Origin: a virus
Taxonomy: Duplodnaviria > Heunggongvirae > Uroviricota > Caudoviricetes
IMG/VR virus record: IMGVR_UViG_2654587588_000015
Coordinates: 1-31,263 of that record
Strand: one strand, 5' to 3'
Length of the DNA stretch: 31,263 bases
Shown here: one piece after another, positions 1,475-4,900 of the stretch
How positions within the stretch are numbered: position 1 is the first letter of the stretch
Layout: each line of letters starts with the position of its first letter
Made by a program: the position numbers and the translations under genes
The notes under the pieces: model-generated
Told to the model about the DNA's origin: nothing
What the model saw: only the letters and a program-made list of their open reading frames with translations
The model's database searches: none

Positions 1475-1654
1475 ATGAAAAACGCATTGCAGTTTTTGTT
1501 TGTTGCGTTCTGGTTGTTCGCATCATGTATGCCCATCATCTTCACAGCAAGGTATATGGAAAAAATTGATGTTTTGATATTAATGTTTGGACATATAAAT
1601 GTCCTTTTTTTAGGGGTGTTCATGGCGGTCACGTGCATTGAATACTGGCGGTAA
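1475..1654 (+). CDS. Small hydrophobic membrane peptide (59 aa)
   Basis: ATG 1475 preceded by GGGGGAATA RBS; two hydrophobic stretches; AT-rich local composition. Confidence 0.4.
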   Translation: MKNALQFLFVAFWLFASCMPIIFTARYMEKIDVLILMFGHINVLFLGVFMAVTCIEYWR

Positions 1655-1856
1655 ATACAGCGAACGCTATTGGTTTAGTTGGATATTTACTGTGCCGGAC
1701 AAAAACGGTTTGCAGGGAAATCTTAGTTAAGTAGAATGACTGTGGGTGCTTGAGGCTATCTGTCTCAGGCATGAACACCAAAAGGCAGATAGAGAAAAGC
1801 CCCAGTTAACATTACGCGTCCGGCAAGACGCTTAACATTAATCTGAGGCCATATCT

Positions 1857-1916
1857 ATGCGACACATAGAGATTAGCCTCTTACGGACCGAAAGGTCAAG
1901 GAGAAGCAGGCTATGA
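1857..1916 (+). promoter_or_regulatory. Short leader ORF (19 codons) whose TGA overlaps the hok ATG (ATGA), mok-like translational coupling element
   Basis: ATG 1857, in-frame stop at 1914-1916 overlapping hok start 1913-1915. Confidence 0.35.
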
Positions 1917-2068
1917 AGCAGCAAAAGGCGATGTTAATCGCCCTGATCGCCATCTGTTTAACCGTCATAGTGACGGCACTGGTAACGAGGAAAGACCTCT
2001 GCGAGGTACGAATCCGAACCGGCCAGATGGAGGTCGCTGTCTTCGTAGCCTACGAATCTGAGAAGTAA
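1913..2068 (+). CDS. hok: Hok/Gef-family type I toxin (51 aa)
   Basis: Translation MKQQKAMLIALIAICLTVIVTALVTRKDLCEVRIRTGQMEVAVFVAYESEK closely matches recalled HokC/Gef; below the ORF-track length cutoff. Confidence 0.85.
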   Translation: MKQQKAMLIALIAICLTVIVTALVTRKDLCEVRIRTGQMEVAVFVAYESEK

Positions 2069-2135
2069 GAGACCAGGCGAGGGGTAATCCCTCGCCACCT
2101 CTCATGTGTCAGGCATCCTCAACGCACCCGCACTA

Positions 2136-2158
2136 AACCCGCTTCGGCGGGTTTTTTG
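2136..2158 (+). terminator. Rho-independent terminator at 3' end of hok mRNA
   Basis: ACCCGC-TTCG-GCGGGT hairpin followed by T6. Confidence 0.7.
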
Positions 2159-2192
2159 TTGCGTGCTGAATACGTAGGGTGAAAAATAACCA

Positions 2193-2342: not shown

Positions 2343-2555
2343 GTGGAAAAAATAAAGAAACTATTTAGTAGCAAATATGCAGTCATACGTCGTGATGACC
2401 TGTCAGTTATAGTCGAAATGGATTACTTCCCTGAAACTAAAAAATCAATGATGTATCGTAATGGTCGAAAGGCAATTTTTTTACCGATGAGGGTAAGTGA
2501 CATTATGGGAAATGATAAACTGCTGGATGAATTGCGAGTCAGAGCATCCTGTTAG
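2343..2555 (+). CDS. Small hypothetical protein (70 aa)
   Basis: GTG 2343 preceded by GGAGG; the ORF track starts at an upstream GTG 2304; AT-rich. Confidence 0.4.
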   Translation: MEKIKKLFSSKYAVIRRDDLSVIVEMDYFPETKKSMMYRNGRKAIFLPMRVSDIMGNDKLLDELRVRASC

Positions 2556-2626: not shown

Positions 2627-3226
2627 ATGGCGCATATACAACTGGTCAAACAAACCTCTTCCGGATTACTTCTCCCGGCGACGCCGGAGAGTTGCGATTT
2701 TTTGCATCAAATAAAAATAGGCGAGTGGATACACGCAGACTTTAAGCGTGTGCGTAACTACGCATTCCACAAGCGTTTTTTCAAACTCCTGCAATTGGGA
2801 TTCGATTACTGGACTCCGGTCGGTGGGGCGATCACGCCTCGCGAACGAGAACTGCTGTCTGGTTTCGTTGATTACCTGTGTGAATCAGTAGGTCGGGAAC
2901 ACACACCAGCCCTGAGTGATGCCGCAGAGCAATATCTAAATACAGTTGCGACACGCAGAACCCGGGATACGGCATTGCTAAAGTCGTTTGAGGCTTTCCG
3001 CGAGTGGGTAACCATTCAGGCCGGATTTTACACCGAGCATCTTTATCCTGATGGTAGTCGTGGGCGTCGGGCAAAATCTATCGCATTTGCGAACATGGAC
3101 GAAACCGTGTTTCAGCAGGTTTATAAATCTGTACTGAATGTGCTGTGGAACTGGATCCTGTTCCGTAAATTTTCCTCTCCGGAGGAAGTCGAAAATGTGG
3201 CCGTGCAGCTGCTGGAGTTTGCGTAA
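2627..3226 (+). CDS. Lambdoid nin-region protein, DUF1367-like (199 aa)
   Basis: ORF with GGAGA RBS; family assignment from memory of lambdoid DUF1367/YbcN-like proteins, not verified. Confidence 0.6.
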   Translation: MAHIQLVKQTSSGLLLPATPESCDFLHQIKIGEWIHADFKRVRNYAFHKRFFKLLQLGFDYWTPVGGAITPRERELLSGFVDYLCESVGREHTPALSDAAEQYLNTVATRRTRDTALLKSFEAFREWVTIQAGFYTEHLYPDGSRGRRAKSIAFANMDETVFQQVYKSVLNVLWNWILFRKFSSPEEVENVAVQLLEFA

Positions 3227-3516
3227 TGGTGGATTTACGTAAAGCGGCGCGGGGCCAGATGTGCCAGGTCAGAATCCCTGGCTACTGCAATCACAATCCC
3301 GAAACGTCTGTGCTGGCGCATTACCGACTGGCGGGAACGTGCGGAACGGCGATAAAGCCACACGATATGCAGGCAGCGATTGCCTGTAGCTCGTGCCACG
3401 ATTTAATCGACGGGCGGGTAAAAACCAGCGATTACACCAAAGAAGAATTACGCCTGATGCACGCAGAAGGTGTTTTTCGCACACAAGAAATCTGGAGAAA
3501 GGAAGGTTATTTATGA
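3226..3516 (+). CDS. YbcO-like (DUF1364) Cys-rich putative nuclease (96 aa)
   Basis: Start overlaps the upstream stop; multiple Cys/His; sits in the nin region before Q. Confidence 0.6.
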   Translation: MVDLRKAARGQMCQVRIPGYCNHNPETSVLAHYRLAGTCGTAIKPHDMQAAIACSSCHDLIDGRVKTSDYTKEELRLMHAEGVFRTQEIWRKEGYL

Positions 3517-4093: not shown

Positions 4094-4153
4094 TCCGAAG
4101 CGCCAGCAAAATCTGGCGTCGGGATTGGAACCCCGGATATCGAAACGGTGCAT

Positions 4154-4173
4154 ACCGCGCTGGCGGTTTTTTT
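4154..4173 (+). terminator. tR'-like rho-independent terminator
   Basis: CCGC-GCTG-GCGG hairpin followed by T7. Confidence 0.55.
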
Positions 4174-4336
4174 ATGCGCTAAGCACAGTCACATTCGCGA
4201 TTTATGGCGGGCTGTGTGGGGGCACCGAAAGGTGCACCGGATGTTTCGACCGGTAGTTCCAACCCTGCACAGTTCGCCACCCGATGATTGGAACCTGAAG
4301 GTGGTGAGGTAAAAATTATCGAAACGCGAGGTCGTT

Positions 4337-4900
4337 ATGACTGTTCAAGTTGCTGTCAAAAACCTTTCCCCTGTCACTTATAACCAGATTCCTGTAATCA
4401 CAACTGAGTTACTCGCCCGCCTTTACGGAACAGAAGCAATCCGTATACAGCAGAATCACCATAAAAATAAATCTCGATTTATTGAGGGAAAACACTTCTT
4501 TAAAGCTGTTGGTGATGAGCTCAAAAATTTGCGACTAGTTTTAAACGAGTCGCAAAATGAGGTGAAAATTTCTCCAAAAACCCGCTCCCTCATCCTCTGG
4601 ACAGAACGCGGCGCAGCCCGTCATGCCAAAATGCTCGAAACCGATCAGGCGTGGGATGTGTTCGAAAGACTGGAAGACTGCTATTTCAGACAAAAGGATC
4701 CGTCAGCGCCAGTTTCATGCCAGAAAAGTTACGACACGCGAGTTCTCTGTTATCAGCAAGGCGGTGTCACTGTTTCCACAATTCAGTTGCGGGATGATGA
4801 TATTGTTATTTCCCTTGAGTCATGGCTGGAACTGGCGAGAGCCAATGGTTGGTTTGTTGTTCGCAGAGATAAACTGGTGGAAAGGCTGATGCAGCTTTAA
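4337..4900 (+). CDS. ORF6N/KilA-N-like putative antirepressor or DNA-binding protein (187 aa)
   Basis: N-terminal region resembles recalled ORF6N-type domains; followed by its own terminator. Confidence 0.5.
   Translation: MTVQVAVKNLSPVTYNQIPVITTELLARLYGTEAIRIQQNHHKNKSRFIEGKHFFKAVGDELKNLRLVLNESQNEVKISPKTRSLILWTERGAARHAKMLETDQAWDVFERLEDCYFRQKDPSAPVSCQKSYDTRVLCYQQGGVTVSTIQLRDDDIVISLESWLELARANGWFVVRRDKLVERLMQL

Follow-up and report, generated by a model that had tools for sequence, protein, structure and literature searches.

Which genetic element occupies positions 1740–2158 of the viral record IMGVR_UViG_2654587588_000015 (Caudoviricetes), and what would it be expected to do in the prophage that carries it? 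A first-pass annotation, made by reading the letters alone, had proposed a complete hok/sok toxin module inside a lambdoid prophage. We analysed the record over its whole stretch of 31,263 nucleotides (nt; hereafter the window), and the proposal was borne out by protein, Rfam and DNA similarity and by the cis elements of the locus. The stretch is an intact hok/sok RNA-controlled toxin–antitoxin cassette of a known kind, carried by many Escherichia coli lambdoid prophages, and is a close allele of the annotated hokD and of the experimentally tested hokW–sokW. We estimate a probability of about 0.88 that it is a hok/sok-type type I module with a mechanism like that of hok/sok of plasmid R1 and of hokW–sokW of the Sakai prophage Sp5. 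The locus is nothing new in kind and raises no fresh question: published work already covers the family and its RNA switch, as well as the occurrence and enrichment of such modules in lambdoid prophages. Its main value is in annotation: a 51-residue toxin, a 19-codon leader and an antisense RNA, all of which are often missed by gene callers, now have base-level coordinates in this prophage.

The Hok toxin and its relatives

The hok coding sequence runs from an ATG at 1913 to 2068 on the plus strand and specifies 51 residues (MKQQKAMLIALIAICLTVIVTALVTRKDLCEVRIRTGQMEVAVFVAYESEK), with the start and limits that had been claimed for it and with neither a frameshift nor a premature stop in the reading frame as read. 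It matches Pfam family PF01848 (HOK_GEF) over all profile positions (1–42 of 42; E = 3.5e-21, 75 bits against a cut-off of 22) and PHROG 251, ‘MokW-like host killing’ (E = 1.9e-30). Residues 6–24 are hydrophobic, and C15, C30 and Y47 (codon TAC, followed by G) are present. The description of the peptide as close to HokC/Gef is true (39 of 50 residues identical, 78%), but HokW (48/51, 94%) and the common form of HokD (46/51, 90%) are closer. A Shine–Dalgarno (SD) sequence, AAGGAG, was read from the sequence at 1898–1903 (plus strand), 9 nt upstream of the hok AUG, and the surrounding CAAGGAG is nearly invariant in the homologue alignment.

At the DNA level, a megablast search with positions 1700–2200 matched 79 phage records, including the Stx2 phage 933W, which carries annotated mokW, hokW and sokW and is 92% identical over 434 nt. 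Matches were also found in 4,937 of 5,426 complete E. coli genomes, at a median of two places per genome and a maximum of nine; the best of these reach 97% identity, are annotated as hokD and have the same neighbourhood as here. One IMG/VR contig, UViG_2648501400_000020, is 100% identical over the locus. For comparative work, 126 homologous loci were collected and reduced to 94 unique sequences, which span Escherichia, Kluyvera, Citrobacter, Photorhabdus, Pantoea, Erwinia and Kalamiella. Near-identical hok genes (89–95% peptide identity) also turned up on very short contigs assigned to Acinetobacter idrijaensis (275 bp) and Xanthomonas pisi (431 bp), and on contigs of a Candidatus Scatousia metagenome-assembled genome (loci L014, L021 and L046); these most likely represent contamination by enterobacterial or phage DNA rather than real occurrences.

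The Rfam sok model RF01794 matches its full length (1–157) to 1744–1915 on the plus strand, with 106.7 bits against a gathering score of 59. The model is written in the sense of the hok mRNA and stops at the hok AUG; a match thus identifies the leader of the locus but says nothing of the strand or ends of Sok itself. Other Rfam matches in the region, to rsmX, ceN48 and Clostridiales-2, were rejected as far below their gathering scores; the rsmX match corresponds to the terminator hairpin only.

The first-pass annotation had left the promoter and transcript of Sok unplaced. Both are assignable, as predictions, through homology to the annotated and tested sokW. Alignment to the 933W sokW misc_RNA feature places a putative Sok RNA of about 69 nt at 1795–1863 on the minus strand, with a single-stranded 5′ tail (1863–1851) complementary to the mok AUG and the bases preceding it, and a terminator hairpin (1850–1798) followed by UUUUCUCU. 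Its predicted fold has a free energy of −31.7 kcal/mol (z = −4.9), and the published sokW Northern probe YO-592 covers the equivalent region. The predicted Sok promoter (1870–1899, minus strand) consists of a −35 element TTGACC (1899–1894), an 18-nt spacer and a −10 element TAATCT (1875–1870), and is homologous to the sokW promoter, in which TTGCCT and TAACCT are separated by 17 nt. The block CCTTG(A)CC...GTAAGAGGCTAAYCT that contains it is conserved over 90 loci. In the published sokW work, primer YO-421 mutates the −10 sequence TAACCT in a promoter-less sokW construct, which unmasks HokW toxicity (PMC8621323).

Comparison with characterized systems shows where the present allele fits. It shares with hokW–sokW of 933W and Sp5 the 92% DNA identity from promoter to fbi (the 3′ fold-back element described below), and with it the promoter, tac, ucb, mok start, Sok promoter block, hok SD, 3′ hairpin and fbi. 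It differs in the Sok promoter sequences given above, in its 3′ terminator, in its mok reading frame, which in 933W is an in-frame extension of HokW of 70 residues, and in its position, since the 933W copy lies near attR and this one between early accessory genes and a Q-like gene. The lambdoid-prophage loci that the PGAP pipeline names hokD (relF) provide the best DNA matches (93–97%) and have DUF1367, YbcO/DUF1364 and DUF1133 genes downstream; they share the short mok leader and the TTCG terminator of the present locus (for example, MSB1_4I). Relative to HokD, the present peptide has a HokW-like C terminus (VFVAYESEK rather than VFTAYEPEE) and the substitutions V13A and T39M. K-12 hokD has been described without regulatory parts (PMC12214031), whereas all of them are present here. 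The R1 hok/sok/mok locus has the same architecture and predicted folding pathway (metastable hairpin, tac/fbi, mok SD/ucb and tac/ucb), with mok starting 19 codons upstream of hok and a cis-antisense Sok over the mok start; however, R1 Hok is only about 44% identical (a value published for HokW), R1 mok is a 70-codon out-of-frame overlapping reading frame, and the locus resides on a plasmid rather than a prophage. The chromosomal hokC (gef)/sokC locus of E. coli shares the Pfam family and the Tyr47 TACG editing site, but is more distant than HokW or HokD, has a core chromosomal location and has mokC in frame in most copies.

Conserved RNA structure and the predicted switch

The cis elements of the cassette, like its family membership and the conservation and covariation of its RNA structure, could be shown from the sequence. 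The hok/mok promoter (1709–1737, plus strand) comprises a −35 element TTTGCA (1709–1714), a 17-nt spacer and a −10 element TAGAAT (1732–1737), scoring 9 of 12 in a consensus scan. It is conserved in 933W and in the hokD locus of MSB1_4I, and in homologues from Escherichia, Photorhabdus and Erwinia its −10 element (TAGAAT, TATAAT, TATATT or TAGTAT) keeps a constant spacing from the 5′ GGGTGC. The putative mRNA start is at about 1743–1745. At the other end, a rho-independent terminator (2135–2160, plus strand) consists of an 8-bp stem with the TTCG loop that had been noted by eye (2135–2154), then a T run; this terminator is common to most hokD-type loci and is replaced in 933W. The predicted full-length hok mRNA, from the 5′ end of tac to the terminator, thus spans 1744–2158 on the plus strand, about 415 nt.

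Folding of this RNA recovered the architecture expected of a hok mRNA. The minimum free energy (MFE) of 1744–2160 is −183.7 kcal/mol (z = −9.9 relative to dinucleotide shuffles). In the MFE fold, the translational activator element tac (GGGUGCUUGAGG; 1744–1755, plus strand), identified from MFE folds and from covariation with fbi, pairs with the fold-back inhibitory element fbi (CCUCAACGCACCC; 2117–2129, plus strand) through 12 bp with C2123 bulged. The complementarity noticed on first reading, between 1742–1755 and 2117–2133, is therefore real, although its 3′ limit of 2133 was slightly too long; in the DNA it extends two positions beyond the helix, 1742–1743 with 2130–2131. Adjacent to tac, a 10-bp 5′ hairpin (1756–1792, plus strand) pairs 1756–1765 with 1783–1792, exactly where it had been drawn by eye. 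It is followed by the ucb, or anti-SD, box (1797–1805, plus strand; GCCCC core at 1799–1803), of which 1799–1805 pairs with 1843–1849 in the full-length fold and sequesters the mok SD. That SD, GAGG (1845–1848, plus strand), lies 8 nt upstream of the mok AUG and is paired with the GCCCC core in the MFE fold; GAGGC is invariant in the homologue alignment, and GAGG has been defined by mutation as the mok SD of R1 (PMC9841398). Further downstream, the MFE fold of the window pairs the mok AUG region (1857–1871) with 2099–2116, and the 3′ untranslated region holds an 8-bp hairpin (2076–2096, plus strand; GGCGAGGG with CCCUCGCC). The 3′ hairpin is likely to protect the 3′ end of the processed hok mRNA; in R1, mutations in the last stem-loop of Tr-hok destabilize the RNA (PMC9841398).

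Much of this structure is conserved, and the agreement far exceeds chance. When the whole structure derived from the window was imposed on an alignment of 33 diverse homologues, 81.8% of cells were paired, compared with about 41% when the 3′ partners were slid. In the same alignment, 49 pairs were changed on both sides (25–33 when slid) and the covariation score was 0.164 (0.064–0.087 when slid), figures that are somewhat favoured by the origin of the tested structure from one of the aligned sequences. The signal is carried by tac/fbi, the 5′ hairpin, the Sok-terminator stem and the 3′ hairpin. For tac/fbi, standard pairs account for 95% in 86 sequences and for 32–53% with the 3′ partner slid; a compensatory change from U–A to C–G at 1747/2126 is present in 12 of the 86 (9/33 in the smaller alignment), and Photorhabdus has GGGCGC/GCGCCC in place of GGGUGC/GCACCC. 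The 5′ hairpin is 91.5% paired in homologues with three pairs changed on both sides, and the 3′ hairpin 97.3% paired with four.

The tac element has three predicted alternative partners: fbi in full-length RNA, 1763–1772 in a nascent, metastable hairpin, and ucb 1797–1803 in 3′-truncated RNA. Constrained folding of the full-length RNA favoured the closed tac/fbi form by 10–12 kcal/mol. With fbi removed, the metastable 5′ hairpin (tac with 1763–1772) and the open tac/ucb form (1744–1751 with 1797–1803) fell within 0–5 kcal/mol of the MFE; the tac/ucb pairing agrees with the R1 model (PMC9841398). With the 3′ end set at 2104 or 2090 the tac/ucb form was itself the MFE, and it then leaves a small hairpin (1854–1870) that presents the Sok target; it lay 0.7 kcal/mol above the MFE at 2098 and 3–5 kcal/mol above it at 2110–2120. 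As the truncated fold varies with the 3′ end chosen, we claim no processing site. The R1 hok mRNA has three conformations, metastable, closed full-length and open truncated (PMC9841398), and the folds predicted here are consistent with that model.

Taken with work on the relatives, these elements suggest how the module would operate, with its transcripts, processing, translational coupling, toxicity and biological trigger being what we infer. Transcription from the promoter at 1709–1737 would yield a stable mRNA of about 415 nt, locked by the helix between its 5′ and 3′ ends, with the upstream box masking the mok SD and 2099–2116 paired to the mok AUG region. Slow 3′ trimming to about the 2076–2096 hairpin would remove fbi, after which tac would pair with the upstream box and free the mok SD and the Sok target. 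For as long as it is made, the short-lived Sok RNA (1795–1863, minus strand) would pair over the mok start and the duplex would be destroyed. Should Sok drop, the 19-codon mok leader would be translated, and termination on the UGA of AUGA would open the hok start or allow re-initiation there. The 51-residue Hok would then enter the inner membrane and collapse the membrane potential.

Role of the cassette and the state of the locus

The tested relative hokW–sokW bears on what might trigger this sequence of events. HokW is toxic, sokW expressed from its own promoter neutralizes it, and mutation of the sokW −10 element unmasks the toxicity (PMC8621323). On treatment with mitomycin C, sokW vanishes in a RecA-dependent manner and HokW then appears in the inner membrane; deletion of hokW–sokW delays growth arrest and halves phage release on induction, and the growth of the uninduced lysogen is unaffected (PMC8621323). 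By analogy, loss of Sok would most likely be triggered here by prophage induction, as shown for hokW–sokW, with loss of the element or shut-off of transcription by an infecting phage as alternative triggers. As a role in this prophage we favour help with lysis on induction, since no other has been shown for a prophage copy. The cassette may contribute to lysis timing, stabilization or anti-phage function, and as toxic cargo it is relevant to cloning or engineering of the region.

A different emphasis is quite possible, although we do not favour it, namely that the module is active but serves chiefly in prophage stabilization or in abortive infection against other phages rather than in lysis on induction. 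R1 hok/sok confers plasmid maintenance and lowers T4 plating (cited in PMC8621323), hok is about four-fold enriched in prophages (23% compared with 5% expected; bioRxiv 10.1101/2025.08.07.668861), and the cassette, equipped with its own promoter and terminator, need not depend on the expression of phage genes to act in the lysogen. However, in the only direct test of a close prophage-borne relative, hokW–sokW brought growth arrest forward and doubled phage release on induction but left the growth of the uninduced lysogen unchanged, and hok is not enriched beside defence systems (bioRxiv 10.1101/2025.08.07.668861). No sequence feature of the locus discriminates between these roles.

Several observations weigh against the favoured reading. 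The locus differs in position from 933W hokW, which lies near attR, so that the role linked to induction may not transfer, and chromosomal hok loci tested earlier gave no post-segregational killing (as summarized in bioRxiv 10.1101/2025.08.07.668861). Toxicity and expression of the present allele are predictions, and its exact peptide (A13, M39 and A46) occurs only on its own contig among the sampled loci. The NCBIfam Hok models match below their curated cut-offs (52.1 compared with 73). The Sok −10 element TAATCT matches the consensus at three of six positions, and the promoter falls below the threshold of a consensus sigma-70 scan; the scan missed it because of this weak −10 element, and it was assigned by homology instead. 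In the RNA, the predicted open form varies with the 3′ end that is assumed, and a second conserved clamp between 1857–1871 and 2099–2116 was rejected, as its helices (6–8) are only 45–67% paired in homologues and the pairing is a prediction for the window only.

The locus could instead be a relic that is no longer expressed or toxic, as reported for most chromosomal hok loci of K-12, where hokA, hokC, hokD and hokE are described as inactivated by insertion elements or rearrangement (PMC12214031; PMC5630033). Among the sampled homologous loci, some lack the upstream leader (L008, L024 and L036), hok is broken in about 6% of the short-mok loci, and the present allele carries three rare substitutions. 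Nevertheless, we consider an inactive relic improbable here. Both promoters, tac, ucb, the mok SD and AUG, the hok SD and reading frame, fbi and the terminator are all intact, neither an insertion element nor a truncation is found at the locus, and the substitutions are either conservative (V13A, in the membrane helix) or known from other alleles (M39 and A46).

The mok leader is one of the points on which the cassette differs from hokW–sokW. It runs from an ATG at 1857 to a TGA at 1914–1916 on the plus strand, encodes 19 codons (MRHIEISLLRTERSRRSRL) and ends on the hok start in an ATGA overlap, as had been proposed on first reading. The two start codons are 56 nt apart, within the range of 56–58 nt seen in 87 of the 94 unique loci. 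Two separate indels (−2 and +1) distinguish it from 933W, where the spacing is 57 nt and Mok is the in-frame 70-residue form. All three frames are represented across the 94 unique loci: mok is in frame in 66, has a long out-of-frame overlap as in R1 in 13 and takes the 19-codon, stop-on-start form in nine. Wherever the hok start is intact, in 93 unique loci, its sequence is AUGAA, and a spacing of 56 nt therefore always ends mok on UGA.

This short form is a common and recurrent variant. It occurs in three unrelated branches, the hokD/hokW group, the hokC-like loci of Escherichia whittamii and Escherichia ruysiae, and Erwinia and Kalamiella, and it arose at least three times in the family. The exact leader of the window was found in at least 119 IMG/VR contigs and that of 933W in 89. 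An intact Hok is encoded by 101 of the 108 short-mok contigs that could be used and by 82 of 85 with the 933W-type leader. Mutagenesis of R1 showed that mok translation is required up to the hok SD and start and not further (PMC9841398); a short mok is thus compatible with translational coupling and is not a defect. That a sequencing or assembly error has hidden an in-frame 70-residue Mok as in 933W, the commonest form in the family, can be dismissed, given that two indels rather than one separate the loci, that complete E. coli genomes as well as the independent IMG/VR contigs carry the identical leader, and that the same 56-nt spacing exists separately in the E. whittamii and E. ruysiae, Erwinia and Kalamiella loci. 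In view of its abundance and independent origins, an error and a step of decay were both rejected.

The Tyr47 codon and the prophage neighbourhood

The Tyr47 codon lies within CUACGAA (2050–2056, plus strand), the known motif for A-to-I editing by TadA, with A2052 as the putative target; the anticodon loop of tRNA-Arg(ACG), as read from argQ, has exactly this sequence. All 93 unique loci compared, which come from several genera, carry TACGAA unchanged, whereas only 9 of 51 third-codon positions are invariant, and A2052 falls in a predicted 9-nt loop. TadA edits the hokC, hokD and hokE mRNAs at the same tyrosine and recodes it to cysteine (PMC5630033; PMC12214031). HokW-type alleles also have the CUACGAA heptamer, and K-12 hokD has UUACGAA. 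It is conceivable, if doubtful, that phage-borne hok is a strong TadA substrate, and that a weak Tyr47 toxin becomes fully toxic only after Y47C editing at A2052, through a C30–C47 disulfide. If so, the prophage module would read the editing state of the host as a second switch on top of Sok.

The cassette lies in the nin-equivalent region, between replication and accessory genes on one side and a DUF1367–YbcO–DUF1133 (Q-like) block on the other, a placement that had been proposed and that follows from the replication genes found further upstream in a syntenic E. coli prophage. The AT-rich surroundings described for it are likewise present, with a GC content of about 35% in the flanks (1351–1650 and 2101–2550) and 46–52% across the hok locus. 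Upstream are small phage open reading frames (ORFs) of unknown function (PHROGs 1714, 1621 and 660). Downstream are genes for DUF1367 (2627–3226), YbcO (3226–3516) and a DUF1133/Q-like protein (to 4067), and beyond the Q-like gene follow ORF6N, lysis and structural genes. Stx phages carry a tRNA cluster downstream of the Q antiterminator gene; the window contains no tRNA genes, and that cluster is thus absent here.

With a promoter-like site and a terminator of its own, the cassette is organized like an insert that is expressed independently. Homology with 933W hokW ends a few bases after fbi (window 2134–2160 compared with the 933W locus, L001), where the terminators become unrelated, and in other prophages several different 3′ ends are joined to the same fbi. 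Sequence comparison thus indicates that the cassette recombined just after fbi. This end of homology, together with the position of the 933W copy near attR, marks the cassette as mobile among prophage positions.

The AT-rich stretches on either side of hok hold two further small ORFs. Just upstream, the ORF at 1476–1654 (plus strand) encodes a very hydrophobic peptide of 59 residues (MKNALQFLFVAFWLFASCMPIIF...), is preceded by a GGGGG SD, contains a terminator-like hairpin (1589–1604) and gave no Pfam or PHROG match. The 457-bp stretch is 95–99% identical in 1,568 of 5,426 E. coli genomes; no annotated feature underlies this match in any of the six records listed, and one of the three phage records that hold the ORF annotates it, as hypothetical. 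Downstream, the ORF at 2343–2555 (plus strand; 70 residues, GTG start) matches PHROG 1813, of unknown function (E = 1.6e-32), and is present in only 175 of the 5,426 genomes.

Between the Q-like gene and the ORF6N-domain gene (ORF 4337–4900), two Rfam families match the plus strand above their gathering scores: isrK at 4100–4173 (72.1 bits compared with 50) and the C4 antisense RNA at 4200–4284 (72.8 bits compared with 45). Judged from these matches, the region at 4100–4284 looks like a control of C4 immunity and antirepressor of the P1/P7 type inside a lambdoid prophage.

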